From positions 23,224 through 87,223 of the forward strand of contig NZ_CANLZX010000007.1 in NCBI RefSeq assembly GCF_947495675.1: DNA of 64,000 bases, given 5' to 3'. The translations under genes and the position numbers were made by a program. The stretch comes from an uncultured Algibacter sp. (GTDB lineage Bacteria; Bacteroidota; Bacteroidia; Flavobacteriales; Flavobacteriaceae). The notes under the pieces were generated by a model that was not told the origin of the DNA, did not search any database, and saw only the letters and a program-made list of their open reading frames with translations. Numbering within the stretch: position 1 is the stretch's first letter; the number at the start of each line of letters is the position of its first letter. This document shows, one piece after another, positions 15,396-48,796 of the stretch.

Positions 15396-15410
15396 TCCTG
15401 TACTGTCTCG
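15396..15410 (-). promoter_or_regulatory. Operator-like phased direct repeat (TCCTGtactgTCTCG, plus strand) upstream of the GH78 tandem operon
   Basis: Half-sites lie at 15396..15400 and 15406..15410, exactly 10 bp apart. The site is 89 nt from the ATG at 15307 and sits between terminator 15461..15495 and the gene. Confidence 0.55.
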
Positions 15411-15460
15411 AAATTTAAATATTTAATAAGAATTACTTTTCATCTGAATTTTATAAGTAA

Positions 15461-15495
15461 AAAAGCTAGAGATTTTAGAATCTCTAGCTTTTTTT
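15461..15495 (-). terminator. Rho-independent terminator after the BNR4-like gene
   Basis: A perfect 11-bp stem, AGCTAGAGATT (15464..15474) / AATCTCTAGCT (15479..15489), has a 4-nt loop. It is flanked by an A-run and a T-run, giving a U-tract on either strand. Confidence 0.8.
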
Positions 15496-15518
15496 AAACA
15501 AAATGTTTTTTTAACTTT

Positions 15519-17969
15519 TTATCTAATTATAAGTTTAGAATGGAAAACCCTTTGATTATCGTCAACTATTTTTATTAAATATAATCCCGATTTAAATCGA
15601 CCATTATTATCAATATCAATTCTATTTGAATTTATTGTATTTTGATAAATAATTTGTCCAAGCATATCGTTTATTACAATAGTAGCTTTATTTACGCCAT
15701 TAAGTAAAACGGTAAATTGATTGTTTGCTGGATTAGGAAAAACCTTCGCTGAAAAAGCATTGGCTTCTACTTCTGGTGCACTTAGCGTTGTAGATTCTAC
15801 TACCCATTTAGACCTGTCGTCGGAATTTCCAATATGTTCAATTATACCGTTGGCGTTGTGATATATATAATTTGAACCATTTCGTGTTCGAAATTGATAT
15901 GTACCATCACTACTGTTATAAATAACGGTAAACTGTTTATCCGAATCTTCTCTTGGTGCAGAAAACCCTGTATTGATAATATCATTTGGAGGATTGCCAG
16001 CTGCTCGTAATATTCCCCTATCAGATCTTTTACTTTCTATATTATAATATTCTCCAGCTTTTACAAATTCCCATTCCTTATCGCCAGAAGCACTATTATC
16101 GCCTGTATCACTTTCAACGACATCTGAACCTACAGAGTATAAATATTTGCCTGTAACAAAATTCTTAATTCTATAAATATCACCTGTTAGGTCTGTTGGA
16201 TCGAATTCACTAAAATTAACAGTATTTTCAATTGAAGATACTGTTTCATTATTCACATTATACGCAATAGCTTGAAGTGTATAGTCTCCTTCAGCAGTAG
16301 GTGACCAATCTATAGCATAAGGCGCACTATTGTCTTCACCAAAATAAGAACCATTTACCCAAAATTCAACCTTAGATATACTGCCATTTTCATCAACTGC
16401 ATTCGCCGAAACTTGAACTGTTTCTCCTATATCAAAAGATGCACCGTTGGATGGTGAAGTTAAAGATACTCTAAACGGTTCTTGCACAATATCTAAATCA
16501 ATAATCTGAAGATAAAGTGGCTGCGCATTACCCGATTTATCTTCCATTAAGTAATAGTATGCTTTACCATTTTCTATGTGGACAACGCCGTGGTCAAACT
16601 GTTTTCCACTAGTAGCCTCATAAACCTTCTCAAAATTATCAGTTCCGCCTTCTGCTTTGTACACAACTACCCTACCGTTATTTAAACCTACTGTATAAAC
16701 ATTAGGCCCTGAGGTGTAAAAAGATCCTGTTATAGATTTTTCTGTAGTTGTAAACTCTGTAGCACCTGCTGGCTTGTAGGTGTGTAAATTTTTAGTAACG
16801 TTATTATCCAAATCTCGTACCTGACTCTTAATATGTACATCCCCATTGTTGGTAACGGTCCAATCAAATCCCCCTACAATGTATACTCTATTTGGATTTG
16901 TTGTCTCTACGTAATCTCCAGGTTCCATGACTTTCATAAAATCGGCATCCCATAATGGAAGACTAAAAGATTCTCCTTTATAATTCTTCCAACCCGTAGC
17001 AGCCGTTTGATCATCTGAATAGGCATAATACACACCGTTTTGATAAAGATATTTATCATCATTGTTTTGTGACCTACGTTGAAAACCTAAACGAAACTTA
17101 CCGTTTACATATTTCATATCACCGTAAAGCCCCCAGTTATAATCAATTCCTGGTTGGCTTCTAGCATTTAACCTATTAAAATCTGTGAAATTACCCCAAT
17201 CTCCTGTATTGGCATCGTATTTTATAAACTTAAACATACCATTGTTATTACCACCTTCCCGCATAAGCATGAAAAGGTCACCATCATCATTTTGGAAAAA
17301 CCGTGGATAGGTCAATGCAACAAACTCAGATTGAGCAGCAGTACCTGGCATTCTTAAATGTTTATAATCATCATTAGAATTTTTAACAAACTTATCTAAT
17401 GTAAAATCTGCATCTGGAAGAGATGCCGCATTTTTAACTGAATAAGAATATCTAAAATAATCGTTAGCTAAACTTCCATTTGATGGTCTACTGGCACTGT
17501 AAGCATGCATATCATATAACAAATGAATTGTACCATCTAAAGGACTTATACCAACAGCTATGGTATTATGAGATTCTCCAATCCAGTATTGATTTTGATA
17601 TCCTGTATGCCTATGAGGAAACTCTATAGTTGCCATTGTACCGGTTACTGTATTGTAACGGGTAAGCATAACATGACGATCTGCTTTACCACCACGATAC
17701 CACGTCATAAAAACATAATCACCATAGGTTTTTATGGCATCTCCATGAGCAGAAATATTACGTCCAAAGAAAAAATCATATGGTGCATTATCTCCTGTAT
17801 TAGAGGTGCCACTAGAAACTTTACTACCATCAAAATGGAGACCTAAATCTGTGATTTTAACTTCCGTTTCTAGAATAACTTGAGCTAAACTGGTTTGAAA
17901 TAAACACAGCGTAAGAAGAACACTTAAGTTTTTTATTAAGAAACTTAAGTTTGGGGTATTTTTTTTCAT
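15519..17969 (-). CDS. Secreted multidomain protein: BNR4-like beta-propeller + Ig-like domain + ricin-type beta-trefoil + T9SS C-terminal sorting domain
   Basis: 816 aa. The propeller region is His-rich: FPHRHTGYQNQYWIGESHNTIAVGISPLDGTIHLLYDMHAYS. The Ig-like segment reads VSLTSPSNGASF...APYAIDW. The trefoil-like segment reads YRIKNFVTGKYLY...QFRTRNGSNYIY...SKWVVE. The T9SS CTD reads KVFPNPANNQFTV...GLYLIKIVD. The gene is bounded by an operator-like element upstream and a terminator downstream. Confidence 0.65.
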   Translation of the reverse strand: MKKNTPNLSFLIKNLSVLLTLCLFQTSLAQVILETEVKITDLGLHFDGSKVSSGTSNTGDNAPYDFFFGRNISAHGDAIKTYGDYVFMTWYRGGKADRHVMLTRYNTVTGTMATIEFPHRHTGYQNQYWIGESHNTIAVGISPLDGTIHLLYDMHAYSASRPSNGSLANDYFRYSYSVKNAASLPDADFTLDKFVKNSNDDYKHLRMPGTAAQSEFVALTYPRFFQNDDGDLFMLMREGGNNNGMFKFIKYDANTGDWGNFTDFNRLNARSQPGIDYNWGLYGDMKYVNGKFRLGFQRRSQNNDDKYLYQNGVYYAYSDDQTAATGWKNYKGESFSLPLWDADFMKVMEPGDYVETTNPNRVYIVGGFDWTVTNNGDVHIKSQVRDLDNNVTKNLHTYKPAGATEFTTTEKSITGSFYTSGPNVYTVGLNNGRVVVYKAEGGTDNFEKVYEATSGKQFDHGVVHIENGKAYYYLMEDKSGNAQPLYLQIIDLDIVQEPFRVSLTSPSNGASFDIGETVQVSANAVDENGSISKVEFWVNGSYFGEDNSAPYAIDWSPTAEGDYTLQAIAYNVNNETVSSIENTVNFSEFDPTDLTGDIYRIKNFVTGKYLYSVGSDVVESDTGDNSASGDKEWEFVKAGEYYNIESKRSDRGILRAAGNPPNDIINTGFSAPREDSDKQFTVIYNSSDGTYQFRTRNGSNYIYHNANGIIEHIGNSDDRSKWVVESTTLSAPEVEANAFSAKVFPNPANNQFTVLLNGVNKATIVINDMLGQIIYQNTINSNRIDIDNNGRFKSGLYLIKIVDDNQRVFHSKLIIR

Positions 17970-18035
17970 GCTTTTTTTTTTAATATTCGAAATTGAATAA
18001 TTATATAAAAATTATGAAAAAAAAGTTTAAAAGTA

Positions 18036-18050
18036 TCCTGCTCTATCCTG
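18036..18050 (-). promoter_or_regulatory. Operator-like phased direct repeat (TCCTGctctaTCCTG) upstream of the BNR4-like gene
   Basis: Two perfect TCCTG half-sites lie 10 bp apart, 67 nt from start codon 17969. Confidence 0.6.
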
Positions 18051-18072
18051 AAAAACAGACAAACAACTATAT

Positions 18073-18387
18073 TTACTCCATATAAAACACTTCTTCCAAA
18101 GGAATTGAGACTGGAGAGTTATCTGGATTAACGTCCATAATATCTGCCATAAAATCCCACCATTTTTTTACAATTGGATTATGTGCTAAATCTTGAGAAC
18201 CTCCATCTCCTGAAACTTTTTGAAAAGCAAAAAGGGTATGGGTTTCCTCATCAAAAAATATGGAATACTCACTTACACCATTATCTTTTAAAAGCTTTTC
18301 AAGTTCTGGCCATAGCTCATTATGGCGTTTAGTATAGGCTTCTTTTTGTCCTTTATTTAATTTCATTTTAAAAGCTAGTCTTTGCAT
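18073..18387 (-). CDS. rhaM: L-rhamnose mutarotase
   Basis: 104 aa with the typical RhaM length and sequence (MQRLAFKMKLNKGQKEAYTKRHNELWPEL...YSIFFDEETHTLFAF...WWDFMADIM). There is no signal peptide. Confidence 0.85.
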   Translation of the reverse strand: MQRLAFKMKLNKGQKEAYTKRHNELWPELEKLLKDNGVSEYSIFFDEETHTLFAFQKVSGDGGSQDLAHNPIVKKWWDFMADIMDVNPDNSPVSIPLEEVFYME

Positions 18388-18390
18388 AAT

Positions 18391-20106
18391 TTATTTAGTT
18401 TTATCAGTTTCAATATAAGGTATTGCTCCAGGATAACCCATTGGTACATTTGAAAAATACTTTTTGTCTTCTATTTTCTTAATTTGTTTATATGGTATCA
18501 TTTCATAATTTATATCATATAATACTAATTTCTCTTTAATTGATTTCTTGAACCACCTTGGACTTATTTGTATTGATTTATTTTCTTTTTTTAATAATAA
18601 AAGTTCTTCTTTAACTTTTAAAGTAGTTAAAGCTTCCCAACGAATATGAATAAATAATACAATTAATGCATTTATCATAATTAAAAAAATGAGTCCATAA
18701 TTAAATGCTTTTTTTTCTTTAAAAGAGTATAATCCAATAAGCATAGGTATAATAGGAATTAGCCATATTTGAGGAGCAAAACGGGCCCACCAAAAATGCT
18801 TACTTATTAGCAAAGAACTAATTATGGCACTATATGCTATAAGCACTAGAAGTCTTTTACTTTTATAATGCCTCAATAAATAAAACAAATAGAGTATTGA
18901 AAGAATTAAGATACCACTAAAAAAAGGACCAAAACCTGCAATTCTAGTTTCATGAAAACGGTAGGCTTTCCAACTTGAAATACTAGATATAAAAGGTATT
19001 GCTAATTCTGCATTATCTTGATTATCGTAAGGGGCATTTCCTGGTTTACCAAAATGAGCATAAAACAAACGAAACGGTAGTGATTTACCTTTCATATTTA
19101 AAGGTGTTTCATGCTTTTCATTCCCGTCTTTTCCTTGTTCTAGTTGACTTAGATATTCTTTAGATCCTAAAATGGGATATAATGGATTCCCTCTTTTATG
19201 CAGGTTTGAAACATAAGGATTGAATCCAAAAACAATTAGCCCTAATACAATTGCTAAAGTATGAAACCCTATATAGTTAAAAATCAAAGCTTTATTTTTT
19301 AATAGAATATACATAAATCCAAAGCCTGAAAAAATAATTAAAAATACTATACCTGTAAACTTTACATTGAGTAATCCAACTATTGCCATTATACCAATTA
19401 AGAGGTGTAAAAAATTATATTTACGAATTACAGAAAATAGAGCTGCTATATAAATACTGAGATACAAAAAAAGAAGACCATCTACTAAATAAGTTGCAAT
19501 TTCGCTCCACACTACAGGATTTAAAATAATTAAACTAGAAACAATAAAACTATTTCGTTTACTTAATCTAAACTTTCTTGATACTATATAAAAAAATAAG
19601 CTAGCAGCTATTAATACAATAAAATTAAGTGCTTTACCGGCTTCAATAAAACCAAAAGTACTGTATATAGATGCAGCCATATACCAGGATCCTTTAGGAA
19701 AATGAATAATTGATAAATCGTTACTTCTATTAAATTTTCTGATAGGTTCTGAAAAAGGGTTCCACCCTTCGGCTAAATTATAAATAGCAGACTGATGATA
19801 CCATTGTCCATCCCACGATAAATCCAAGAACAATCCTGAAACCAATAAAGAAAATACAATAAAAAAAAAACTTAGTAAAACCGAAACCTTAACTGTTCTT
19901 TTATCAATTTCATATTTCTTTCCTAAAATAAAAAGAACGATAACAGCCAAAATAACAGATAATGGAAATGTCCATGGTAAAAAAAAATGCCCAATAATAA
20001 AACTTAATAAAACCAATAAATGATTTAAACAAATAGTCAGTAACAGTATAAGGCAACAGCTTAATGTTATTTTATAACCAAAAGAATATTCATATTCTTT
20101 ATTCAT
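18391..20106 (-). CDS. Polytopic integral membrane protein of unknown function (12 or more hydrophobic helices; GT-C / O-antigen-polymerase-like architecture)
   Basis: 571 aa dominated by long L/I/F-rich segments. A loop, LDLSWDGQWYHQSAIYNLAEGWNPF, follows the early helices. I recognise no MFS/SSS/RhaT signature. The gene sits 3 nt upstream of rhaM. Confidence 0.6.
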   Translation of the reverse strand: MNKEYEYSFGYKITLSCCLILLLTICLNHLLVLLSFIIGHFFLPWTFPLSVILAVIVLFILGKKYEIDKRTVKVSVLLSFFFIVFSLLVSGLFLDLSWDGQWYHQSAIYNLAEGWNPFSEPIRKFNRSNDLSIIHFPKGSWYMAASIYSTFGFIEAGKALNFIVLIAASLFFYIVSRKFRLSKRNSFIVSSLIILNPVVWSEIATYLVDGLLFLYLSIYIAALFSVIRKYNFLHLLIGIMAIVGLLNVKFTGIVFLIIFSGFGFMYILLKNKALIFNYIGFHTLAIVLGLIVFGFNPYVSNLHKRGNPLYPILGSKEYLSQLEQGKDGNEKHETPLNMKGKSLPFRLFYAHFGKPGNAPYDNQDNAELAIPFISSISSWKAYRFHETRIAGFGPFFSGILILSILYLFYLLRHYKSKRLLVLIAYSAIISSLLISKHFWWARFAPQIWLIPIIPMLIGLYSFKEKKAFNYGLIFLIMINALIVLFIHIRWEALTTLKVKEELLLLKKENKSIQISPRWFKKSIKEKLVLYDINYEMIPYKQIKKIEDKKYFSNVPMGYPGAIPYIETDKTK

Positions 20107-20188
20107 ATACTAATATGATTTTTTCTTAGATAAAGAATTCTTACAACTATTTAAGATAATTATTATAAAATATTCAATCCTACTGTTT

Positions 20189-21973: not shown

Positions 21974-21979
21974 TGTGAC

Positions 21980-22011
21980 TTATATTGTTATAAGATAATA
22001 TAACAATATAA
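21980..22011. other. Perfect 13-bp inverted repeat in the GH2-sulfatase intercistronic gap
   Basis: TTATATTGTTATA (21980..21992) and TATAACAATATAA (21999..22011) are separated by a 6-nt spacer. The element lies between stop 22025 and start 21973. Confidence 0.6.
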
Positions 22012-22024
22012 AACACTAAATTAT

Positions 22025-25000: not shown

Positions 25001-25023
25001 AAATTAAATAATGAGAAGTTACT

Positions 25024-27201: not shown

Positions 27202-27232
27202 AAACTCTTTTTTAATAATTACTTTATTTTAA

Positions 27233-28633: not shown

Positions 28634-28698
28634 GAAAAAGGATTTATTATTACAATTTTATTACCAATCAAAGTTAAATTGAAGAATAAAATTTTGTA

Positions 28699-28773: not shown

Positions 28774-28808
28774 AAAAAGACCGAAAGAAAACTTCTTCCG
28801 GTCTTTTA
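28774..28808 (-). terminator. Rho-independent terminator after susD
   Basis: The stem GACCGAAAGAA (28779..28789) / TTCTTCCGGTC (28793..28803) is 11 bp with one mismatch and a 3-nt loop. On the minus strand it is followed by TTTTTG. Confidence 0.65.
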
Positions 28809-30432: not shown

Positions 30433-33400
30433 TTAAAAAGTTACGTTTAAACCAAGTGTTATAACTCTTGGGTTAGGATATTGTGCACTAAGATATCCTT
30501 GTGCTATATTACTACGACCAAAACTACTTGCTTCTGGATCAATTAATCTCGTTTTAGAAAACAATAATAAATTCGTTCCTGAAAAATAAACGGTTGCATT
30601 GTTAATTCCGTCTAATCCCATTTTATCAACAGGGAAATTATATGCTAATCTCACGTTTTTTAGACGTATGTGCGATCCATCTTCAACATATTCCGAATTA
30701 CTTGGTGTGTTTGTAACAGAATCTGCACCTGCTCTAGGAATATTAGATGTTTCATTAACACCTTCTATCCAACGGTCACGTAAATCTCCAAACTTAACAC
30801 CTTCTCCACGGTTAAAATAATTATTCCTCATGTTTAGGTTGTAGACTTCATTGCCCGTAGTACCTTGAAAATAGAAAGAAAAATCCCAGTTCTTATATGA
30901 AAATGAGTTTTCAAATCCAAAAATTAAATCTGGTGTAGGATCTCCTAAAATCACGTTATCCTCAGTTGAAATAATACCATCCGGAACACCATCAGGACCG
31001 CTAATATCGTCAAATCTAGACCCACCAACAACTTGAGCAGTTAAACCAGAAGCATCAATCTCAGCTTGACTTTTCCATGTCCCTAAGTATCTAACTCCTG
31101 TGTAAACAGGAACTGATTCTCCAACAATTAAACGTGTATTACCAGACCCAATAATAGGATCTACTACAATATCAATAAAATCTACACCACCAAGGTCTAA
31201 AATTTTGTTTCTGTTTGCAGATAATGTTACCGTAGAATTCCAATTAAAATTAGAGGTTCTAACATTTGTAGAGTTTACAAGAAATTCCCATCCTTTATTT
31301 TCTAAAGATCCAACATTTTGTAATTGACTATTAAAACCTGTTTGTCTTGGAATAGTTACATCTAATAATAAATCTTCTGTTTTCTTGTAGTAATAATTAA
31401 ATTCTGTAAAAACTCTACCACCAAACAAAGATGCTTCTAGAGCGATATCGAACGAACTTGTAGTCTCCCACATTAAATTGGGATTTGAAGGCCTACCAAG
31501 AGTCAAACCGGGCACTTCTTTACCATTAAGTGTTGTATTTGCTTCAGTTAATTCTCCAAAAGTTCTATATGGCTCAATAGCTTGATTACCTGATTTACCC
31601 CAACTAGCTCTTAATTTTAAATCTTGAAACACATTTTGATCTTGCATAAAATCTTCTTCAGATATTTTCCAAGCTCCTGCTATTGAAGGGAAAAACGCAT
31701 ATTTATTACCTGGTGCAAAACGAGAACTACCATCTGTTCTTCCTACTAAAGTTAAAAGGTATTTATCTTTATAGCTATAATTTAATCTTCCGAAAAAAGA
31801 TGCTATTTGAAATGCACTATAATCACTAGAAACCGCTGCCCTAACTGGATCTGAAAAACCTAAGTTATCAAAACCTACTGCATCACTTGTAATTCCTGCA
31901 GCCTCTGATAAAGCTATTTCAGTAGCTACTTTTTGAAAAGAAGCACCTGCAAGTGCGGTAATACTATGATTTTCTCCAAAATCTGATTGATATTGTATAG
32001 TATTTTCATTATTCCATCCTGTACTAGCAACTGTTCTCACACTCGCTGTACCTCCATCGGGTACGTTATCTGCGAGAAAACCTGGCAATTGACTAGATGT
32101 AAATCTATTTTGCTTAGTATTGTTAAATTCTGGACTAAATGTAGAACGAATAGTCCACTTTGGAGCTGGACTATACTCTAAATAAACTGTTGCTAATAAA
32201 TTATTAGTAAACGTTTCATTAGTATTCAATGCTATAGCAGCTAAAGGGTTATTAAAAGGAGCTCCTGCAACCTCATCTCGTCCATTAAAGGTTCCATCGT
32301 CATTAAAAGCAGGCTGTGTACGAAGTATACCAAAAGCTGCCTGACTAAAACTACCCAGCGCGTTATCTTGTTCTAGTCTAGAATAATTTAATCTAAATCC
32401 TGTTTTTACTTTATCGTTAATTTTAAGATCTAAATTTGTTCTGAAAATATATTTTTCAATACCAGAACTCCTAACGATACCTTCTTGATTAAAATAATTA
32501 AACGATGTGTAATAATTAACATTATCTGATGCTCCAGAAACAGAAATATCTGCATTATAAATTGGAGCAGTTCCTAATACTAAATCAACCCAATCGTTGT
32601 CAGGATATGAAGATGGATCACCTGGAAATGGCTCTGCAGCAGACCTAAAACGAGCACTTTCGTTTGTAAACTCTATTTGCTCCCTTTGAGAAAGTCTATC
32701 TGGTAATTCTGGTAACATTTGTGAACTTGTATATAGATTTAGACTAATCTGTGGTTTTCCAGTTCCAGCTCCTACACCATTTTTTGTAGTTACTAAAACT
32801 ACCCCATTTGCACCTCTAGAACCATAAATGGCAATAGAAGAAGCATCTTTTAAAACCTCGATAGATTTAATATCGTTACTATTAATGTTGTTTAAGTTGA
32901 AATTTGTACCAACCACAATACCATCAATAACCCAAAGCGGCTCATTACTTCCCGTAATGGAGTTACCTCCTCTTACTCTAATAACAGTACCAGCACCTGG
33001 CGCACCACTAGTTTGTGTTACTTGAACACCGGCAGCTCTTCCTTGTAAAGCTTGATCTACTCTGGCAACTGGTACAGCCGTTAAATCTTCTGAACTTACA
33101 GATGATACCGATCCTGTTAAATCTGATTTTCGTTGCGTACCGTAACCAATAACAACGACTTAATCTAGCTTATTGTCTTGCTCTAAAGATACATTGATTT
33201 GAGTTTGATTACCTACAAGTATTTCTTTTGTTGAGTAACCAATGTAAGAAATAACAAGTGTACTTAGTGCATCTGCCTTAATAGTAAACTCTCCATCAAA
33301 ATCAGTAGTTGTACCTTGTGATGTCCCTTTAATTAATACTGTTGCTCCTGGTAGTGGTTGACCGTCTGCAGTAACTGTACCTTTTACAGACTGCGCATTA

Positions 33401-33489
33401 GACATTGCCATACAAGAAAATGCCAAAATAACACACATCCAGGTTTTCCGAAAACTCGAACGAATACTTAATTTAGTTTTTAAATTCAT
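30433..33489 (-). pseudogene. SusC-like TonB-dependent transporter interrupted by one in-frame TAA (33160..33162)
   Basis: ORFs 33160..33489 (signal peptide plus CarboxypepD_reg-like domain, ending ...LEQDNKLD*) and 30433..32916 are in the same frame. I translated the stretch between them and found no further stop: VVVIGYGTQRKSDLTGSVSSVSSEDLTAVPVARVDQALQGRAAGVQVTQTSGAPGAGTVIRVRGGNSITGSNEPLWVIDGIVVGTNF (plug domain). The stop replaces the Glu of the conserved LDEVVV(I/V)GYGT junction. The total length of 1018 codons is a normal SusC length. Confidence 0.8.
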
Positions 33490-33548
33490 AAAATTTTAGT
33501 TTGATTGTTAATAGATTCCTAAAATATTATGAATTTTTTTATCAACTG

Positions 33549-33613
33549 TCCTGTTGCATCCCTTACTATCCTGCACTACCCTGTGCTATTCTGTACTATT
33601 CTGTACTATCCAA
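33549..33613 (-). promoter_or_regulatory. Array of ~7 helically phased copies of the 10-bp unit (T[CT]CTG+TACTA) upstream of susC
   Basis: The plus strand reads TCCTGttgca TCCCTtacta TCCTGcacta CCCTGtgcta TTCTGtacta TTCTGtacta TCCaa, every half-site exactly 10 bp from the next. The array ends 60 nt from the susC ATG (33489) and begins 13 bp after terminator 33626..33662. Confidence 0.65.
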
Positions 33614-33625
33614 TAATAGGTTGTT

Positions 33626-33662
33626 AAAAAAAAATCTCAGACTACATAGTAATCTGAGATTT
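33626..33662 (-). terminator. Rho-independent terminator after the GH39-like gene 33695..35383
   Basis: The 10-bp perfect stem AAATCTCAGA (33632..33641) / TCTGAGATTT (33653..33662) is extendable by 3 further pairs. On the minus strand the stem is followed by a run of T, from the 9-A run at 33626..33634 on the plus strand. Confidence 0.8.
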
Positions 33663-33694
33663 CACAACTAAAAGAATGGTTATTTACTCTTTAT

Positions 33695-35383: not shown

Positions 35384-35425
35384 TTTGTTTACTTCAAAAA
35401 TAAATAAAAACCAACTAACAAACCA

Positions 35426-35455
35426 TCCTGTACTGTACTGTACTGTACTGTAATG
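35426..35455 (-). promoter_or_regulatory. Operator-like element merged with a pentanucleotide microsatellite (TCCTG TACTG TACTG TACTG TACTG TAATG) upstream of the GH39-like gene
   Basis: It carries the same TCCTG/TACTG words as the other sites, 43 nt from start codon 35383. Confidence 0.55.
35428..35452. repeat. Perfect (CTGTA)5 pentanucleotide microsatellite
   Basis: Five uninterrupted CTGTA units were counted base by base at 35428..35452. Confidence 0.95.
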
Positions 35456-35547
35456 CTATTATAAATAGAATTAATAAATTTTTGAAAGTTAAATACCTAT
35501 GTTAGATAAAAAAACATCTTGAGTTAACAACATATTGTATATTTAAA

Positions 35548-36321: not shown

Positions 36322-36331
36322 TTTATTAATA

Positions 36332-37927: not shown

Positions 37928-37939
37928 GAATTTTAAACT

Positions 37940-39736: not shown

Positions 39737-39762
39737 TTAAAAATTTATTTAAAATGTTTCAA

Positions 39763-40710: not shown

Positions 40711-40789
40711 TTTTATTGTATTTTAATTTAAATTAGATATATATAATTACTTAACTTTTCAAATATAATCAAGCAATTCAGGTATATTG

Positions 40790-40804
40790 TCCTGAACTGT
40801 CATG
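40790..40804 (-). promoter_or_regulatory. Operator-like phased direct repeat (TCCTGaactgTCATG) upstream of the CBM-like T9SS gene operon
   Basis: Half-sites lie at 40790..40794 and 40800..40804, 80 nt from start codon 40710. Confidence 0.5.
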
Positions 40805-40893
40805 TATCATTTATAAAAACACCTAATAAAGTAAAAAACTAATTTATGTTATTTAACCAAAACAGTTTTCACTTCTTTTAAATATCTAAAAGA

Positions 40894-40930
40894 GAAAAAG
40901 AAAATATAGTATTACCATATTTTCTTTTTC
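40894..40930 (-). terminator. Probable terminator hairpin after GH78 gene 40940..43801
   Basis: A perfect 14-bp stem, GAAAAAGAAAATAT (40894..40907) / ATATTTTCTTTTTC (40917..40930), has a 9-nt loop. It is AT-rich and followed on the minus strand by TCTTTTAG. Confidence 0.5.
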
Positions 40931-40939
40931 AAATTATAA

Positions 40940-43801
40940 CTATTTAGATTTTGAATATTCAATTTGATAATTCCCAGAACCTAAAACTATAGAATCTTCT
41001 TTAATTTTAAGAGTGTTATTTTGTTTGAATTCTGAAATAGATTTTCCATTTATTTTTAAACTTTCAAGTTCTGAAGGTGTCACTAGAACCCTTGCTTCTG
41101 TATTAAACGGTACTTCAAGATTCATATGCAACACTTTATCGTTTATTGTCCAATTATTGGTAATATCGCCATAAGGAGTTGGAACTTTTACTTCCGTTTT
41201 TGTAATTGCATTAGGAAACTCAGGGTTTACAGTAAATGCTTTGTAACCTGGTTGATCTTCTGAAGATTTAATACCACCTAAAGATTCATAAAAATAAGCT
41301 GCAAAACCACTATGCATTGGGTGATTTAAAGAGTTTGTTGGCCCTTCCATTTCTTCCCAAACAAATTGGCGTTCTGGCCATGTGGTAAATCCTGAATTCA
41401 TGACATAGGTTTGACTTGGAAAATCTGGAGTTGTTAGAATTTGATGTGCTAAATCTGCTTTTCCGTATTTAGATAATACGGTGTAAATATATCTATTACC
41501 ATGTATTCCTGTTGAATGATGACCACCTTTAACTTTAACAATATCATGTGCTAAACCATTCACAATACTTTCAATATCATTTTCTGGTGCTAAACCAAAT
41601 TGTAAAGCTTGAACAGTTGCCGTTTGACTTTGATACCATTTGTGCTTTGTGTTAGGAATTTCAACTAAAAATTGCTTGTTAAATGCCTCTTTTAATTCGT
41701 TTTGTTCTTGCTTCATTTTTGCGGCATAAGCAGCATCATTATTCATTTCAGCAAAGGTTTCCATAATACCCAAAACATCATAAAAATAAGCGTTTGCCGA
41801 AATAATAGGATCGCATTCCATGGCACTAGGATTTTTACGTCGGTCCCATCGTGGTGGACACCAATCGCCCATACCATCTTGCATAATGCCATTTTCGCCT
41901 TTAAAGTTGAGATAGAAATTGGTCAAGTTTCTCATTTCTTCATAGTACTCTTTTACTATAGCATCATCTCCATAAAACTTGTAATTATACCATGGCAAAT
42001 ACATGGTGGCCACACCCCAATCTATTTTTGCATAGGTTGATGTACGTTTTCCTGGAGCTATCATAGTTGGTACTTGAAACTTTATATCTGGATTATTATG
42101 TCCTTTTGTTGGTCGCATTTGCGTACGGATGTCTTCCATATATTTTTTATAGAAATCGTACATATCGTAATTGTAAAGTGCATATTCACAAAATGCATGT
42201 GCATCTCCCAACCAACCACATTTTTCACGGTGCGGACAATCTTCTGGAATACCGTGAACATTGTCTACAATCGTCCATTTACTAATACTGTGCATTTTGT
42301 TTAGTAATTCATCTGAAGATGTAAAACTTCCTGTTTCTTGAATATCTGTAGCCACCAAAACTGCTTTTATCATCTTAGCATCTGGTTTTCTAGAAACACC
42401 ATTTATTTTTGCATATCTAAACCCGTGATAACTAAATTTAGGTTCCCAAGATTCTATGCCATCTCCTTTACAAATGTATTTATAAATTTGTGCCATTCCA
42501 TTTGCGCCACCTCCTGTAGAGCCTGGAAAAATATCTTTCCCATTGGTTAATAATGCTTCGGTTGTTGTGATTTCAATTAATTGCCCTTCTTTTCCTTGAA
42601 CATTTAATTTTACCCAACCTGCAATGTTTTGTCCAAAATCAACAATCCAATTACCATCTGGTGCTTTAAACACCTTTTGTGGTTCAAATTCTTTTAATTT
42701 TTTAATTGGAGGAATTTGACTCGCACTTATTTTTTTTACTTGCGGAGATGCTACTTTTGCATTACCCCATTTAGCATCATTATAGCCAACTGTATTCCAA
42801 TTTCCTAATTCATAACGCGCATCATAGGTGTCGCCTCCATAAATATTATTGAATACTATTGGTCCTGTAGCTTCTTTCCAGTTTTCGTCTGTATAAAAAT
42901 CTGATGATGTACCATCTTTATAAATCAATTTCACCAAACAACGCACGGTTGGTGGGCCGTAAGACACTCCTTTTTTATTAGATTCTGGATCACGGCTCCA
43001 AGAAATATTTTGTCCGTAAAATCCATTTCCTAATATAATTCCAAAGGCATTTTTACCAGATTTTAACTGTTCTGTAATATTATAATTTACATAATAGGCT
43101 TGCTTATCGTAGTTAGATGGCGCAGGATCTAAAACATGATCTCCAACTTTAGTTCCATTTAAATACAACTCATAATAACCTAAACCGCAAATATAAACTT
43201 GTGCATTTTCAACATCTTTACTAAGGTCTATCTCATTTCTAAAATAACTAGCTGCAAAACCATCAACTGGTTTGGCTTTTTTCATATTACCTCTTTTATA
43301 ATCTCTAAATCGATGCTCTGAAGTTCGCGTATCTTTATTTAGTGTGATCCATTTTGAAGCTCCCCAATTTTCGGCATCCATCAAACTCATTTCGAATTCT
43401 TGAATCTCTGACCATTTAGAAACCGTACCCTGTTCATCCCAAATTTTTACTTTCCAAAAGTATTTTTGCATTGGTTTTAAACCTGTGCCTTTATATTTTA
43501 CAAAAGTTGATTTGTTGCTTTTTACTTTTTTAGTATCCCATAAATCAGCATCTCCTTCATTTAATTTTTCTTTTGATGATGAAACCAATATGTGATATGC
43601 TGATTGAGATTTGTTAAATCCATCAATATTTACAATCCAAGAGAAATCGAATTGATTGTTTTCTATGGTAGTTGGATTTTCTTTAGCATTAACTAATAAT
43701 TTTTCAAAAGATATTGGCTTACCTGATGTAGAAACATCTTTACAAGAAAAGCATATAATTAAGATTATAATAAGTGAGAATAAAGTTTGTTTTTTGACCA
43801 T
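40940..43801 (-). CDS. GH78 alpha-L-rhamnosidase
   Basis: 953 aa. The N-terminal module reads FDFSWIV...QSAYHILVSSS...DLWDT...KYFWKVKIWD. GIPEDCPHREKCGWLGDAHAF is the catalytic-domain signature. Confidence 0.9.
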   Translation of the reverse strand: MVKKQTLFSLIIILIICFSCKDVSTSGKPISFEKLLVNAKENPTTIENNQFDFSWIVNIDGFNKSQSAYHILVSSSKEKLNEGDADLWDTKKVKSNKSTFVKYKGTGLKPMQKYFWKVKIWDEQGTVSKWSEIQEFEMSLMDAENWGASKWITLNKDTRTSEHRFRDYKRGNMKKAKPVDGFAASYFRNEIDLSKDVENAQVYICGLGYYELYLNGTKVGDHVLDPAPSNYDKQAYYVNYNITEQLKSGKNAFGIILGNGFYGQNISWSRDPESNKKGVSYGPPTVRCLVKLIYKDGTSSDFYTDENWKEATGPIVFNNIYGGDTYDARYELGNWNTVGYNDAKWGNAKVASPQVKKISASQIPPIKKLKEFEPQKVFKAPDGNWIVDFGQNIAGWVKLNVQGKEGQLIEITTTEALLTNGKDIFPGSTGGGANGMAQIYKYICKGDGIESWEPKFSYHGFRYAKINGVSRKPDAKMIKAVLVATDIQETGSFTSSDELLNKMHSISKWTIVDNVHGIPEDCPHREKCGWLGDAHAFCEYALYNYDMYDFYKKYMEDIRTQMRPTKGHNNPDIKFQVPTMIAPGKRTSTYAKIDWGVATMYLPWYNYKFYGDDAIVKEYYEEMRNLTNFYLNFKGENGIMQDGMGDWCPPRWDRRKNPSAMECDPIISANAYFYDVLGIMETFAEMNNDAAYAAKMKQEQNELKEAFNKQFLVEIPNTKHKWYQSQTATVQALQFGLAPENDIESIVNGLAHDIVKVKGGHHSTGIHGNRYIYTVLSKYGKADLAHQILTTPDFPSQTYVMNSGFTTWPERQFVWEEMEGPTNSLNHPMHSGFAAYFYESLGGIKSSEDQPGYKAFTVNPEFPNAITKTEVKVPTPYGDITNNWTINDKVLHMNLEVPFNTEARVLVTPSELESLKINGKSISEFKQNNTLKIKEDSIVLGSGNYQIEYSKSK

Positions 43802-43842
43802 AACTATTTTCTAATTTGAAGATTTTTTAGGTTAATTACCCT

Positions 43843-46431
43843 TTATTTTATTATAATTTTATGATTTGAAATACCTTGCTCACTCTCTATTTGTAATATA
43901 TAAATACCTTTTTGTTTATTCTGAAAACGAATTTGTTTTTCTGATTTAAAGCTCCCTTTTTGAACTTCTACTCCATTTATTGAGTAAATTCTATATTGAG
44001 CTTTTCCTCCATTGTTTATTTTAATGTTAAAGACTCCTATACTAGGATTAGGAAACACCTTAACCTTTTGTAGGTTATTTTTATCTACAGATAATTGACC
44101 TTTAGAAAATATGGCTTTGATATTCATATCTGATGTTATTACTAATGCTAAAGGATTATCAGTACTAGTTACATCTCCTTCCCAACGTTCAAACTCCCAA
44201 CCTTCATCTGCAATAGCATTTAAACTAAATTCTTGCCCATTTAGTGCTGTACCACTACTATAATTTAAAAGACCTTGTCCTTCTTTACTTAGCGTTATTG
44301 TATGGATAGTTGGATCTGTAGGAATAAATTCAATGCTATCAAAAATGATACTTCCAGAACTGAAATTATTATAAAATTTAAATTCATTAATAGTACCTGT
44401 CCATAGCCCCCAATTAGTTAAATCAAAATCTAAGGTATGCCATTGGTTATCATTAGGTACTGTTTCTTTTTTTCTTCCAGACAAAAAACTTGTACCTGGT
44501 GCATTTGGTAACATTTGAAGATCTGGTTTATCTGTACTATTTTTAACTACAATTCTTAAGGTGCCATATAAACTAGCATTTATATTTAGATCTGTTATAG
44601 CTATCATAGGCCAAGTAACATCTGAAGTAAAAGGCACACTTAATTTATCATTTTCTGTATTAATTGTTACCTCTCCATTAACTGCATACCAAGACCAAGC
44701 TGAAAAATCATCAGTAGTAGTCCAAACATAAGTTGCTGGAGTAATGGCTTCCACAAAGCTTGCTTCTGGTCTAAATTCAAATTTTTCAAAAGCAAAAGAT
44801 TCAATTTCAGTTGATACATTAACTTCAGACCCTGATTTACCATCATTTCGTTCTTCAGTATTAATACTTTTCCATTCTGTAAATTGATGAGGGCTTGGAT
44901 TTTCATAATTTTGATATGCAGTAAACCCTTCTTCTGTTAAGGTTCGTTCTGGTGCTCCTTTCTCATCATAACCACTCTTTACATAGTTTGAATTGTTGAT
45001 TAAAAAATTCTGAAGTTTGTTATTCTCTTTACCATAAGATTTACTTCTATAATACAAGGTTGTACCAACAGGTAGATCTGTTGTAAACGAAACATCTACA
45101 GTTTCCTTGTTTCTATAAGTTAAGGAACTACTATTATAATTATAGATTAACGCATCATATTCATTCTCAGTATTATTTTTTACAAAGATGGCATCCAACT
45201 CATTTGTTGATGTATTAGGACTCCCGGAAATACTAGTTTCATAACGAATTAAACCTAGCATCTCATTTAATTCTTTTATAGCATCTGGATTTTCACTTCC
45301 TGTTCTATTTCCCCATCTGTAAATAAATTCTAAGCCTTTGTCCTTATTCTTATAATAAGTATTGGAAAAAATCAATTCTACGATTTCTCTATGTGAAGTT
45401 TCACAACCAATTGTTCCTTTACCGTCTGCTCCATTCATGGTCGTTACGGTTTTATACTCCATAATATCTATTGACGTTTCAGGATTCCATTTAGGATTAT
45501 TTATAAGAGGCGCAAAATTTTTGATGTATTTTCCATTCATATCCCTAAGAACACTATTACCAATAACAATATAATCTGAAAGTCCCCAAAAGTCACATGT
45601 TATATTATTATCAAAATTATAATCTATTAAGTCTTCTATAAATGATGCATAAGGTTCACCTTTATAATTTAATACTGATCCACTCTTATATATAAAACCT
45701 GGGTTTCTAGTGTGCAAGCCTATCTTAGCATTTGGTAATATAGCTCTAACGGCTTGTACTGTATTTGCAAAATGCTCGATAAAATCTTGCTTTGTGCCAT
45801 ACCAATGCTCTGGAGTTTCAATTTCTGAACCTACTCTAAAACGCCATGACAACACTTTTTCTTCACCATAGGTCTCAACCAATTTTGTCATTAAAGCTTT
45901 TATAAAATCATGGTAAGCTTGTTTATCTGCAGGAGGCAAAGAGTTTCCATAAATTGATATTCTCTCATTTTCTCGAAAATTAATATTATCTCGTGTGCCT
46001 TCTGGAATAAATGTATACCCATGTTGAAAAGCCCATGGTGGTTGATCTAAAGCTATTTGTAAAATTTCAGTTTGTGAATTAACAACTTTATTTAGTCTAT
46101 CTATTAGCGCATCCCATTGATAAACGTATTGATTATTAATAGAATCGTAAATACAAGGATCAAAATCTAAATCTTTTACATTTTCATCATTAACTTTTTT
46201 ATTAATACCTCCAATCATCCTTACTATATTCATTTTAAGGCCAGGACGAATATTAGATCCATTTCTTGGACTTATTCGATTAGCAGTATTCCAAACATCA
46301 TGAATAGGGAGTTTTCTATCACTTTCACTTGTAAAATCGGTGGATAAGTTTACTTGACCTTGAGTTGAAGTAACTAAAATAAAACACAATAAAATAAAAA
46401 TATTGCATTTAATAAAACTAAAATTTTTCAT
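43843..46431 (-). CDS. Clan GH-A, GH39-like glycoside hydrolase with CBM-like/Ig domains and a T9SS C-terminal sorting domain
   Basis: The ORF track begins at a TTG (46470). The ATG at 46431 (MKNFSFIKCNIFILLCF..., signal peptide) is the more likely start. WRFRVGSEIETPEHW is paralogous to WRFRVATEPNYSPQHW of 33695..35383. The CTD reads VKVFPNPSIGVFNIK...KGIYILQIESEQG. Confidence 0.5.
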   Translation of the reverse strand: MKNFSFIKCNIFILLCFILVTSTQGQVNLSTDFTSESDRKLPIHDVWNTANRISPRNGSNIRPGLKMNIVRMIGGINKKVNDENVKDLDFDPCIYDSINNQYVYQWDALIDRLNKVVNSQTEILQIALDQPPWAFQHGYTFIPEGTRDNINFRENERISIYGNSLPPADKQAYHDFIKALMTKLVETYGEEKVLSWRFRVGSEIETPEHWYGTKQDFIEHFANTVQAVRAILPNAKIGLHTRNPGFIYKSGSVLNYKGEPYASFIEDLIDYNFDNNITCDFWGLSDYIVIGNSVLRDMNGKYIKNFAPLINNPKWNPETSIDIMEYKTVTTMNGADGKGTIGCETSHREIVELIFSNTYYKNKDKGLEFIYRWGNRTGSENPDAIKELNEMLGLIRYETSISGSPNTSTNELDAIFVKNNTENEYDALIYNYNSSSLTYRNKETVDVSFTTDLPVGTTLYYRSKSYGKENNKLQNFLINNSNYVKSGYDEKGAPERTLTEEGFTAYQNYENPSPHQFTEWKSINTEERNDGKSGSEVNVSTEIESFAFEKFEFRPEASFVEAITPATYVWTTTDDFSAWSWYAVNGEVTINTENDKLSVPFTSDVTWPMIAITDLNINASLYGTLRIVVKNSTDKPDLQMLPNAPGTSFLSGRKKETVPNDNQWHTLDFDLTNWGLWTGTINEFKFYNNFSSGSIIFDSIEFIPTDPTIHTITLSKEGQGLLNYSSGTALNGQEFSLNAIADEGWEFERWEGDVTSTDNPLALVITSDMNIKAIFSKGQLSVDKNNLQKVKVFPNPSIGVFNIKINNGGKAQYRIYSINGVEVQKGSFKSEKQIRFQNKQKGIYILQIESEQGISNHKIIIK

Positions 46432-46497
46432 TTTTTTTTTTTTATAACTATCATCATTATACTCTCTCAAAATAACAACTTTATTATATGATTAATA

Positions 46498-46512
46498 ACC
46501 TGTACTATCCTG
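46498..46512 (-). promoter_or_regulatory. Operator-like phased direct repeat (ACCTGtactaTCCTG) upstream of the GH39-like T9SS gene
   Basis: Half-sites lie at 46498..46502 and 46508..46512, 67 nt from the preferred ATG at 46431. Confidence 0.55.
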
Positions 46513-46963
46513 CATAAAAACGCATCAACACTTTTTTACTCAATAGTGTGAATTTTTATCTAGATTAATACTCTGTGTTCTGGAGGTTATGAAAATTTAG
46601 CAAATAGCTGTGGTTGCTATGAGATTACTGATGGTAATATTTTAAAAGACGAAGAAGCTAGTAGCACCAACCTAAGTACTAGGCCTCTACTTTATGCTAT
46701 CAAAACTTCAGACAATAAAAATAAACTTGAAAAACTATGTAACGATTAACCCTTTATGTAACTAAAAATGGAGATATGTTGCTAATAGTTGAGCTTTTTC
46801 AAAAATAAAAGTAGGCAATACTAAAACCTACATTAAACACTACCATACTACAGAACGGGTTTACCCTAGTTATGCACTTATTACAAAAGTGATACTGGGA
46901 ATTTAACTGCACATGTTGTATATAAAAAGGTTAAGTTCTAAAGGGAATAAACAATAAGATATT

Positions 46964-48724
46964 TTAGTTTACAACAATTTTATGAGTTGAAACACCTTGA
47001 CTACCTCTTAGTTGCAGAATATATATTCCTGTTTGATTATTATCAAAATGAATCTCTTTAGATGATATGAAATTTCCTTTTTGAATTTCTAAACCGTTAA
47101 TTGAATAAATTCGATACTGCACTTCTTCTCCATGAGTTAGTTTTACATTAAACGTACCTTTATTAGGATTTGGATATATGCTTATCTCATCTTGCTTTAC
47201 GATTTTTGAATTAGATAATGATGCATTAGTTAATTCTATAATATTTATTGAAAATTTTGGTAATATAATACTTTCGCTACCATCGCTAATTAAAGTTAAA
47301 GGATCTACATCTATCCCCATAGTTCTTTCTTCGTCCATTGTAGAAAACGCAATTGCTTTATGTACTGCAGCATCTGTATAAGCTACCCCATCAATATTTA
47401 CATTGAATGGCACGTCTTGATCACTAAGATTTACAACAAAAACAGAGGTATTTCCATCTTTAGTTACCACTCTTGCATTAACTGCTTTTACGCTATCTTC
47501 AAGGTTAGCTACTTGTACATCGCTTTCAATTAATGTGGTATTTTCAAGTGCCAAACGTATAATTTCATAAGTTGAACCAAAAAGAGTTTTTTCTAAAGGA
47601 TATTTAATTCTTGGACGTTCTACACCACTTGGAGCAATATAGGTTTCCCAAACATAATGTGAGTTTAATTGTCCATTAACACTAAACCAATTGGCACGTT
47701 CAAAAACATCTTGATTTTGACTCATATAGATATAACAATCTGCCATTCCTAAAGCAGATACCGCATTCGGGCCACCAGATTTCACACCCCACTCTGTTAA
47801 CCAAATGGGCTTATTGGGTGCAACTTGATGTGCATAATCGTAAATAGAATTTCCTAGATGTTTACGTGCTGTAAGTGCCGTACCAAAAGCTTCATCACTA
47901 TTGGCAGCATCATCAGGATCTGAACCTACGTAGGTATGTACTGTAACTGCATCAAAATAAGTTAAATCTTCTGTTAAATCTGCATTCCAATTAGGGTTTG
48001 CCCAACTATCTTTTCTTAATAATGGTATAGATACTTTTATATTGGGATCTTTAGCTTTAAGTGCTGCTGACATGGCTTTTGCTCTAGCAATATAGTCTTC
48101 TGTATTTGGAATAATAGAGCTTCGTTGACCTGGATAAAAACACTCGTTACCCATTTCAACAACTTTTACTTCTAAACCCCTAGCTATCAAATCATCATAT
48201 CGTGCTATGGTTTCCGGACATCCGTTATTAAAATCAGTACCATCTGCACTCATGTTAAAAGTCCACATCATATCAAACCCCTTGCCTGTTGTAGATTTTC
48301 TTGAAGTATTTAAACTTGTTAGCCCATCAATACCAACTTTAATATTATTGCTATCAAATATTTTTATATTAGCTAATAAATCAGGAGATTTTGTTCTAAT
48401 AGTCTTGCTAACTCCTTGTTCGTATTGAAAGCTTTCTGTTCCAAAAAGACGAGTAACATCACGCCGCCAATCATACCAGTTAGCCCATAAACCATGAGGA
48501 AACCTTATAGTTATAGGTTTTAATTTGTTTATTAAATCCTTCTCTTTTGTAGTTGAAAAATGATGTGTATTTGTTCCAAGTAATAAATTGTTATACACTT
48601 CTTTTGATGTTGAAGTTATATTAATAGTTGCTTCCATATTAGACGGCAAACTAAAAGGGTAATCTTGAGCATATAATGATGCTGAGATTAGTAGTACTAA
48701 GCAAAAATTAAGTAATCTCTTCAA
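46964..48724 (-). CDS. Clan GH-A TIM-barrel glycoside hydrolase (GH51/GH79/GH30-like motifs) with a T9SS C-terminal sorting domain
   Basis: 586 aa with a TTG start followed by a good signal peptide (KRLLNFCLVLLISASLYAQ). IRFPHGLWANWYDW resembles R-[FY]-P-G-G...Y-x-W. VVEMGNECF is the candidate acid/base, VHTYVG the H-x-Y motif and IWLTEWGVK the candidate nucleophile. The CTD reads ISIYPNPNKGTFNVK...GIYILQLRG. Confidence 0.5.
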   Translation of the reverse strand: MKRLLNFCLVLLISASLYAQDYPFSLPSNMEATINITSTSKEVYNNLLLGTNTHHFSTTKEKDLINKLKPITIRFPHGLWANWYDWRRDVTRLFGTESFQYEQGVSKTIRTKSPDLLANIKIFDSNNIKVGIDGLTSLNTSRKSTTGKGFDMMWTFNMSADGTDFNNGCPETIARYDDLIARGLEVKVVEMGNECFYPGQRSSIIPNTEDYIARAKAMSAALKAKDPNIKVSIPLLRKDSWANPNWNADLTEDLTYFDAVTVHTYVGSDPDDAANSDEAFGTALTARKHLGNSIYDYAHQVAPNKPIWLTEWGVKSGGPNAVSALGMADCYIYMSQNQDVFERANWFSVNGQLNSHYVWETYIAPSGVERPRIKYPLEKTLFGSTYEIIRLALENTTLIESDVQVANLEDSVKAVNARVVTKDGNTSVFVVNLSDQDVPFNVNIDGVAYTDAAVHKAIAFSTMDEERTMGIDVDPLTLISDGSESIILPKFSINIIELTNASLSNSKIVKQDEISIYPNPNKGTFNVKLTHGEEVQYRIYSINGLEIQKGNFISSKEIHFDNNQTGIYILQLRGSQGVSTHKIVVN

Positions 48725-48781
48725 TATTTCTTTTTTATAAGTTTAATTAAGTAAATGTAGAACTTCTTAAAACTAATCATA

Positions 48782-48796
48782 TCCTGTACTGTCCTG
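48782..48796 (-). promoter_or_regulatory. Operator-like phased direct repeat (TCCTGtactgTCCTG, best copy) upstream of the clan GH-A T9SS gene
   Basis: Two perfect TCCTG half-sites lie 10 bp apart, 58 nt from start codon 48724. On the coding strand a TACATTTA (near TAnnTTTG, -7-like) box follows about 25 nt downstream of the repeat. Confidence 0.6.

Follow-up and report, generated by a model that had tools for sequence, protein, structure and literature searches.

The 64,000-nt stretch of DNA analyzed here (the window; contig NZ_CANLZX010000007.1, positions 23,224 to 87,223) comes from an uncultured Algibacter sp., a flavobacterium with 33% G+C, and carries a short tandem repeat, the CAGGA box, that recurs between its genes. 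The window is an ulvan-type polysaccharide utilization locus (PUL) in which the minus strand holds all 30 large open reading frames (ORFs). Pfam searches identify among them one PL28-type ulvan lyase, four GH78 and two GH106 rhamnosidases, eight sulfatases, enzymes of families GH2, GH3, GH39 and GH43, a 3-keto-disaccharide hydrolase, several proteins secreted via the type IX secretion system (T9SS), susC/susD and a small rhaM gene. The nearest genomes are those of Algibacter amylolyticus (GH39 94% identical), Flaviramulus multivorans and Algibacter luteus. Pfam found no regulator gene among the 30 large ORFs, nor was one seen in a 493-bp gap; this agrees with the original prediction, made from the letters and an ORF list, that the 64 kb encode none. 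An Rfam scan of the window returned no RNA family.

Every real intergenic gap longer than 100 bp (8/8) holds a CAGGA box on the coding (minus) strand, each scoring 21-27 bits against the position weight matrix (PWM) described below (Table 1). The box is an 18-20 bp tandem repeat of two 10-bp units, with the consensus CAkGAyAGTA-CAGGAtAG. Gaps shorter than 100 bp lack it in the window, the 82-bp gap near 20180 containing only a degenerate remnant. The original prediction had listed eight sites, one in each gap of more than 100 bp and all in one orientation, with half-sites 10 bp apart that end 43-89 nt upstream of the next start codon. All eight are present at their coordinates, with the spacing and the distances as claimed. 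Two gaps are shorter than the ORF list implies, as 17970-18390 includes rhaM and 32917-33694 includes the N-terminus of a stop-interrupted susC, but once the boundaries are redrawn each still has a real gap of >100 bp with the motif, and the claim for all eight gaps holds. The second case, an apparent 778-bp 'gap' in the ORF list, is due to an in-frame TAA at 33160-33162 in susC (start 33489, minus strand), which reads NKLD*VVVIGYGT where orthologues have LDEVVVIGYGT, with Glu. The susC of the window is either a pseudogene or the site of a sequencing error.

The box upstream of GH39 is conserved upstream of GH39 orthologues in many genera, and orthologous susC promoters have 4 units versus seven in the window. 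A terminator scan reports two hairpins ahead of boxes (Table 1); a third, after the ulvan-lyase gene, was seen by eye only. Because the hairpin of the preceding unit stands just before a box, the window resolves into ~8 box-driven transcription units, and it also has one unit that starts beyond coordinate 64000. The coordination of about nine units proposed earlier is thus supported, with the count in the window nearer to eight.

Table 1. CAGGA boxes with their -7 boxes and downstream features, and terminator-like hairpins, in the window (TSS, transcription start site)
Feature	Position	Strand	PWM score (bits)	-7 box	Predicted TSS	Start codon	Unit or context
CAGGA box CGAGACAGTA CAGGATAGTT	15391..15410	-	24.1 (intergenic)	15366-15374	~15361	GTG 15316 or ATG 15307	GH78_b-...-sulfatase operon promoter
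CAGGA box CAGGATAGAG CAGGATACTT	18031..18050	-	26.1	TAATTTTT 18007-18014	~18002	ATG 17969	PL28-type ulvan lyase promoter
CAGGA box CAGTACTGTA CAGGATACAA	28694..28713	-	22.6	TAACTTTG 28669-28676	~28664		GH5-like/GH3/GH2/sulfatase operon promoter
Seven-unit 10-bp phased array GGATAGTA / CAGAATAGTA / CAGAATAGCA / CAGGGTAGTG / CAGGATAGTA / AGGGATGCAA / CAGGACAGTT	33544..33613	-	15.6-25.3 (overlapping matches)	TATTTTAG 33519-33526	~33514	ATG 33489	upstream of susC/susD
Box with 5-bp sub-repeat (CAGTA x4 + CAGGATGG)	35421..35455	-	27.1	TATTTTTG 35395-35402		ATG 35377	GH39 promoter
CAGGA box CATGACAGTT CAGGACAATA	40785..40804	-	21.5	TATATTTG 40760-40767			T9SS-protein/GH43/sulfatase/3-keto-disaccharide-hydrolase operon promoter
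CAGGA box CAGGATAGTA CAGGTTATTA	46493..46512	-	22.9	TTATTTTG 46468-46475		ATG 46431	GH39-like/GH78_c operon promoter
CAGGA box CAGGACAGTA CAGGATATGA	48777..48796	-	25.2	TACATTTA 48752-48759		TTG 48724	T9SS_586 gene promoter
Intrinsic-terminator-like hairpin	28775..28807	-					ends susCD unit, directly upstream of next CAGGA box
Intrinsic-terminator-like hairpin	33631..33663	-					ends GH39 unit, directly upstream of susC array

A strict pattern, CAG[GT]A-N5-CAG[GT]A, matches the minus strand of the window six times, always between genes, and the plus strand not at all. A loose pattern allowing two mismatches is only weakly enriched in the window (40 matches versus 26.9 expected). The PWM, for which the training set was 214 sites taken solely from other genomes, finds 15, 14, 11 and 8 matches on the coding strand of the window at thresholds of ≥14, 16, 18 and 20 bits, and 0 on the opposite strand. 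In 200 block shuffles of the window, the corresponding means were 0.44, 0.14, 0.04 and 0.03. These data confirm the motif in the window as highly non-random. The information profile is asymmetric, describing a direct repeat of CAGGAyAG rather than a palindrome. Within coding DNA of the window the top score is 16.4 bits and falls on the codon string of a conserved GH78 peptide. The moderate in-gene matches at 10800-10819, 42612-42631 and 55336-55355 are all this one codon string (…GCAGGTTGGGG/T), which is a predictable class of false positives for genome-wide scans with this matrix.

For comparison, we assembled 76 loci encoding GH39 relatives from species-representative genomes. Together with the window these amount to 1.48 Mb, 86% of it coding, and contain 279 matches of ≥14 bits, versus 20 in a reversed-sequence control. 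Most of the 279 are intergenic (251), and 229/235 intergenic matches face a co-oriented downstream gene; where an intergenic region is divergent, each direction has one box. Across the 76 loci, the box stands upstream of GH39, susC, GH78, PL28, GH5-like/GH3, sulfatase and T9SS-protein units, and it also precedes rhaT/rhaM and units of extracytoplasmic function (ECF) sigma factor, anti-sigma and susCD genes. It occurs in Algibacter, Flaviramulus, Hyunsoonleella, Seonamhaeicola, Lutibacter, Mariniflexile, Polaribacter, Olleya, Flavicella, Maribacter and Aquimarina, as well as in two metagenome-assembled genomes of Saprospiraceae; none was found in the Marinilabiliales, Cyclobacteriaceae, Bacteroidales or PVC (Planctomycetes-Verrucomicrobia-Chlamydiae) loci of the comparison set. 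This footprinting, which yields 207 box-bearing promoters across the 76 loci, shows the box to be conserved. Among first genes of transcription units, 161/246 of those with a homologue in the window have a box, compared to 24/154 of the others (odds ratio 10, p = 1e-23), and the latter 24 are mostly PL28, rhaT, T9SS or ECF-sigma genes. Flanking housekeeping genes in the orthologous loci have no box.

The distance from the box to the promoter is nearly invariant. In 176 of the 207 promoters, a TAnnTT motif starts at position 28, that is, 27 nt past the C of the proximal CAGGA, with TA at positions 28-29 and TT at 32-33; six promoters deviate by 1-2 positions, and the remaining 25 lack a TAnnTT match. 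The intervening 19-nt spacer is A/T-rich and carries no information, nor does the sequence upstream of the 18-bp box. Neither a TTTG/TTG -33 element nor any G-containing consensus was found between the box and the -7 box, positions 9-27 holding <0.25 bit each. All eight promoters of the window match the -7 box at 4-6 of 6 positions, giving predicted 5' untranslated regions of 13-54 nt. The predicted TSSs stand ~39 nt downstream of the proximal C, and for the four promoters with no TSS entry in Table 1 they fall at 35390, 40755, 46463 and 48747. In the TSS map of Flavobacterium psychrophilum, the Bacteroidota sigma-A -7 box, TAnnTTTG, lies at -12 to -5 (PMC9723704). Given this placement and the fixed spacing, the box covers ~-49 to -32, over the -33 position, with its center at ~-40.5, a class II-like placement relative to predicted TSSs. 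The original prediction had put the box just upstream of a -33/-7 promoter. On the contrary, it sits on the -33 position, at one spacing in 176/207 promoters, and this direct repeat, whose orientation is fixed, belongs to the promoter architecture itself.

Two further promoter searches gave no contrast to set beside this. The normal -33/-7 geometry, sought in 42 promoters without the motif, produced no signal, and a scan of the window for sigma-70-type promoters was uninformative (94 matches versus 94.3 expected), as expected for the phylum. A variant of the box, ending CAGGAGAGTTA, precedes a GH39 paralogue (55-59% identical) in three of the numbered comparison loci (L053 ~9940, L056 ~9738, L074 ~9928), at the correct distance to the -7 box; in L074 it lies amid housekeeping genes. 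This paralogue is apparently a remote member of the same regulon or a target of a paralogous regulator.

The box extends beyond ulvan loci. We scanned JGI metagenome contigs with one exact pattern (box + N20 + TANNTT) and obtained at least 120 loci. Exact-pattern scanning finds ~3% of real sites, and owing to this low sensitivity the sample is biased to consensus-like sites. Among the matches listed, 18 of the 120 form one near-identical repeat family on ORF-poor contigs; this repeat, CATGAAATTGCAGGACAAAATAGTGTTAGGCCTACATTACATT (L089, L090, L097, L104, L106, L131, L134, L140, L144, L146, L172, L187, L190 and others), comes from few samples (Ga0209781, Ga0209364) and is not PUL-related. The other 102 listed loci range in G+C from 0.29 to 0.60, with the match intergenic in nearly all and a long ORF usually within ~100 nt. 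Downstream of the listed boxes lie susC-like genes (28), GH78 (7), GH106 (3) and ECF sigma factors, along with rhamnose catabolic genes: rhaEW (bifunctional aldolase/dehydrogenase), rhaT, lldD (FMN-dependent lactate-type dehydrogenase) and Gfo/Idh oxidoreductases. GH78, GH106, rhaEW, rhaI, rhaB, rhaT or rhaM is present in 39 of these 102 loci and in 22 of the 43 listed loci of at least 8 kb. These downstream genes indicate that the box marks a rhamnose/rhamnoside regulon in diverse Bacteroidota, to which the ulvan locus belongs as one large member. Specificity for ulvan PULs was therefore not borne out, as the box is also found on the rha catabolic operon and on rhamnose genes in metagenomes. 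In six loci (L018 ~8710-9000, L020, L058, L113, L159, L165), CAGGA boxes precede units of ECF sigma, FecR anti-sigma, susC and susD, an arrangement that suggests a cascade in which the rhamnose regulator turns on a second, trans-envelope signaling system.

We looked for the binding protein within ±10 kb of GH39 in the 76 genomes, assigning ~70 unlabeled ORFs by Pfam. Most proved to be enzymes, transporters or housekeeping genes, and one a transposase. The regulatory genes in these regions were the following: L046 has a hybrid two-component system (HTCS), and L018 has an ECF sigma/anti-sigma pair, to which clustering adds homologous pairs in L020 and L058; one locus has an Lrp/AsnC gene at its edge, and an AraC gene belongs to a small, unrelated locus (L053/L056). 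Genes of 310-360 aa divergent from boxes encode PL28 lyases and Gfo/Idh oxidoreductases, not regulators.

A better candidate came from the metagenomes. A ~346-aa protein with an N-terminal GntR winged helix and a C-terminal LacI/periplasmic-binding-protein core (Pfam GntR, Peripla_BP_3; hereafter GntR/PBP) is encoded in 7 of the 120 motif-anchored loci among the matches listed. Its gene is present in 13 loci in all (L114, L139, L141, L142, L155, L162, L179, L203, L204, L046, L077, L079, L202), and 9 of the 13 have a site of ≥14 bits no more than 500 bp away from it. In Arenibacter algicola the gene and rhaEW-rhaI-rhaB run divergently, and boxes stand 64 nt upstream of rhaEW (25 bits) and upstream of the adjacent susC (26 bits). 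The gene of Formosa sp. PL04 sits between rha catabolic genes and susCD. Like pairings are seen in L114, L139, L141, L142, L155 and L162. The AlphaFold2 model of the protein has a pLDDT of 90, and Foldseek matches it to the cores of RbsR, TreR, CcpA and LacI at E = 1e-12; it falls outside all NCBIfam models. The winged helix has its highest score with MocR-type regulators, a group that binds direct repeats, and the only solved structures matching it are the AraR N-terminal domain (4egy) and similar winged helices. In the recognition helix, S51, D53 and T54 stay the same even at 37% identity, in line with the unchanged motif.

On the basis of these sequence comparisons, the box is most likely read by this GntR/PBP regulator, encoded outside the window, and as a rule beside the rhaEW-rhaI-rhaB operon or within other ulvan loci. 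The absence of a regulator from the window ORFs supports the original prediction of a trans-acting factor beyond the 64 kb. The families named there, an AraC-type HTCS output domain or an OmpR-like winged helix, are not supported as such; 'winged helix' was right in spirit, since the co-localizing protein is a GntR winged helix. In four ulvan loci (L046, L077 8744-14056, L079 8820-14056, L202 10001-15307), the GntR/LacI-type gene and a 1351-aa HTCS gene are inserted at the sulfatase/GH2 junction. At the same junction in the window (1940-1989) there is a 45-bp gap with neither gene and no promoter box, and the regulator pair was either lost from the window or never acquired.

We infer the identity of the binding protein, its effector and the preference for activation over repression from these observations, and at a probability of about 0.6 favor a reading in which the box is the operator of a trans-acting, one-component L-rhamnose regulon factor of the GntR/LacI type, working as a class II-like activator. 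Each promoter is a rigid cassette of two 10-bp units, a 19-nt spacer and TAnnTTTG, on which a dimer would place its two winged helices in tandem, separated by one helical turn. Cytoplasmic L-rhamnose released from ulvan, or a close metabolite, would probably bind the protein, and the sugar-bound form would most likely recruit RNA polymerase as a class II activator. In this way, the ~8 transcription units of the window and the rhamnose catabolic genes may be switched on together, with the extra phased units at susC allowing cooperative, stronger occupancy. Activation is favored because the spacing is precise to 1 bp, the phased extension at susC runs upstream only, and the box does not overlap the -7 box or TSS. 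An activator bound as a tandem dimer had been proposed from the sequence of the window; the geometry is indeed typical of one.

Several observations weigh against this reading. The GntR/PBP gene is not in the window, its presence in the source genome is assumed, and its co-localization with the box is correlative. In ulvan loci L046, L077, L079 and L202, the HTCS gene always follows the GntR/PBP gene, so the two are confounded there. One boxed rha operon (L120) ends with a classical LacI-family gene instead. The TSSs of the window are predictions from the -7 box. AraR, the sole characterized protein of such architecture, is a palindrome-binding repressor. Finally, the -33 element is weak in flavobacteria anyway, being barely detectable in their promoters (PMC7366714), and its absence here is no proof of activator dependence.

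The same operator and protein could instead serve repression, with the dimer on -49 to -32 blocking the region-4 / upstream contacts of RNA polymerase until rhamnose releases it. We regard this as unlikely but the most serious of the alternatives. AraR and most sugar regulators of the LacI and GntR types repress, and the candidate matches the AraR N-terminal domain (4egy) and LacI folds; a missing -33 element is not diagnostic either way, given how weak it is in flavobacteria. However, the spacing is fixed to one bp in 85% of 207 independent promoters from many genera; direct contact with polymerase requires such precision, whereas steric repression does not, and its operators usually scatter in position. 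Moreover, the -7 box and the predicted TSS always lie clear of the box, and extra units are always upstream and in phase.

Far less probable is that an HTCS sensing periplasmic ulvan oligosaccharides reads the box through its AraC-type output domain. Such genes do lie within orthologous ulvan loci (HTCS-1 in L046, L077, L079 and L202; HTCS-2 in L080 and L081), and the GH2 gene directly after HTCS-1 bears a box. A single AraC-type domain contacts two major grooves ~10 bp apart, and class II sites of the MarA type are similarly rigid in their spacing. However, the window has no HTCS, and only some ulvan loci do. Among the matches listed, HTCS-1 orthologues occur in none of the 120 motif-anchored loci, and the box is found on cytoplasmic rhamnose catabolic operons in loci without an HTCS. 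For HTCS operators of Bacteroides, predictions give two directly repeated sites of 12-16 bp at a period of ~21 bp (PMC3878776), whereas the box has a 10-bp period and most promoters contain just one 18-bp site, no second one being conserved 21 bp away. The recognition helices of HTCS-1 also differ from each other (SRSMLFTK versus RPKYFSQC), a poor fit with two identical half-sites. HTCS-2, which follows a GH43-GH3-GH88 block and is 41-43% identical to HTCS-1, adjoins a promoter with a different, 21-bp-period repeat, AGGAGTTTTnTCYAC-N6-AGGARTTTT, while CAGGA boxes lie elsewhere in the same loci. That repeat (L080 14137-14166, L081 14125-14154) is followed by a -7 box, lies upstream of a small T9SS gene and does not occur in the window; it is a good candidate for the operator of HTCS-2.

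Least probable of all is an unseen regulator, of the OmpR/PhoB type or LacI family, or a box that is the upstream element of an ECF sigma promoter: CAGGA-N5-CAGGA does share its geometry with OmpR/PhoB/CpxR-type sites (tandem repeats in direct orientation that recur every 10-11 bp across the -35 region), a LacI gene ends the boxed rha operon of L120, and ECF sigma/anti-sigma genes adjoin boxes in the six loci named above, but no Trans_reg_C-type response regulator was found in ~200 motif-bearing loci (what a PhoB query picks up there are receiver domains alone, residues 5-120), the LacI gene is a single occurrence (AraC genes are in 3 and LacI in 1 of the motif-anchored loci among the matches listed), the ECF genes lie downstream of boxes, and of just a few of them, and are therefore targets rather than binders, the downstream element is the sigma-A -7 box TAnnTTTG, where flavobacterial ECF promoters have a CGT-type -10 (PMC9723704), and a site of two units and 18 bp exceeds the length of a -35-type contact.

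The closest known parallel to the GntR/PBP protein is AraR of Bacillus subtilis, which has the same GntR winged helix joined to a LacI/GalR-type effector domain (Pfam, Foldseek, 4egy) and is likewise a cytoplasmic monosaccharide sensor controlling both catabolic genes and glycosidases for polymers of that sugar. Only the winged-helix domain shows detectable sequence similarity between the two. AraR is a repressor whose operators are palindromes at variable positions, whereas the site here is a 10-bp-phased direct repeat at one fixed position. In Bacteroides thetaiotaomicron, the predicted regulons of ManR (GntR family) and a different AraR (NrtR family) include susC/susD and glycosidases (PMC3878776). 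The logic is the same, with a catabolic operon, susC/susD and glycosidases co-regulated, but the sugar, taxa and motif differ, and here the regulon spans ulvan loci of 60+ kb with eight or more promoters. Rhamnose control in Bacteroides is assigned to an unrelated AraC-type RhaR, with a predicted repeat of 21-bp period (PMC3870299).

In mechanism, though not in family, the promoters resemble PhoB pho boxes, OmpR F/C sites and class II marboxes of MarA/SoxS, all tandem repeats, spaced by one helical turn, that replace the upstream promoter element at rigid spacing; the promoter here is of the Bacteroidota -7/-33 kind rather than sigma-70, and neither OmpR/PhoB-type nor MarA-type proteins accompany the boxes. 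At OmpR F1-F2-F3, as at susC here, some promoters have extra phased copies upstream. Bacteroides HTCS operators are also direct repeats upstream of susC and PUL operons, but with a period of ~21 rather than 10 bp. The B. thetaiotaomicron promoter motif PM2 was compared as well and is a different, near-palindromic motif.

Literature searches found no paper on this motif, on the GntR/PBP regulator or on any ulvan-locus operator, consistent with the earlier statement that no operator of this sequence has been described. The regulon and its regulator are apparently undescribed, although a one-component, sugar-responsive factor is an ordinary kind of system. A marine flavobacterial PUL regulator that has been characterized by experiment is the alginate repressor AusR (PMC7641319), and a text search showed no other.

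Because the ulvan units share their operator with rhamnose catabolic genes, the end-product rhamnose, and not only periplasmic oligosaccharides, would drive expression. Ulvan-locus proteins of Formosa agariphila are reportedly induced by rhamnose alone, which would fit. A broader possibility, which we advance tentatively, is that one cytoplasmic monosaccharide sensor acts as the master switch of giant ulvan/rhamnoside loci, a fourth major mode of PUL control after SusR, HTCS and ECF/anti-sigma systems. Its targets would include susC/susD, secreted lyases, sulfatases and subordinate ECF-sigma systems in several classes of Bacteroidota, and its direct-repeat, activator mechanism would be one not known for the AraR-type architecture.

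The regulation of marine flavobacterial PULs is poorly understood, and the boxes offer a testable wiring diagram for one of the largest PULs known. The cassette from box to -7 box is a compact 45-bp promoter module, probably rhamnose-inducible, for Bacteroidota genetic tools. The motif can also serve as a marker that assigns orphan genes, such as lone GH39 paralogues, unknown T9SS proteins or a 571-aa ORF of the window, to the rhamnose/ulvan regulon.

Two other features of the window deserve mention. At 46513-46963, ~450 bp separate the stop codon of the 586-aa T9SS gene from the CAGGA box that follows, unusually long for so tightly packed a locus. No ORF here exceeds 37 aa and Rfam gives no match; the region may be what is left of a gene, or an RNA that lacks annotation. 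The 571-aa ORF (18391-20106, minus strand) belongs to the box-driven operon that runs from GH5-like to sulfatase genes. It has no Pfam match at E <= 1e-5 and is a candidate for an uncharacterized ulvan-active protein.

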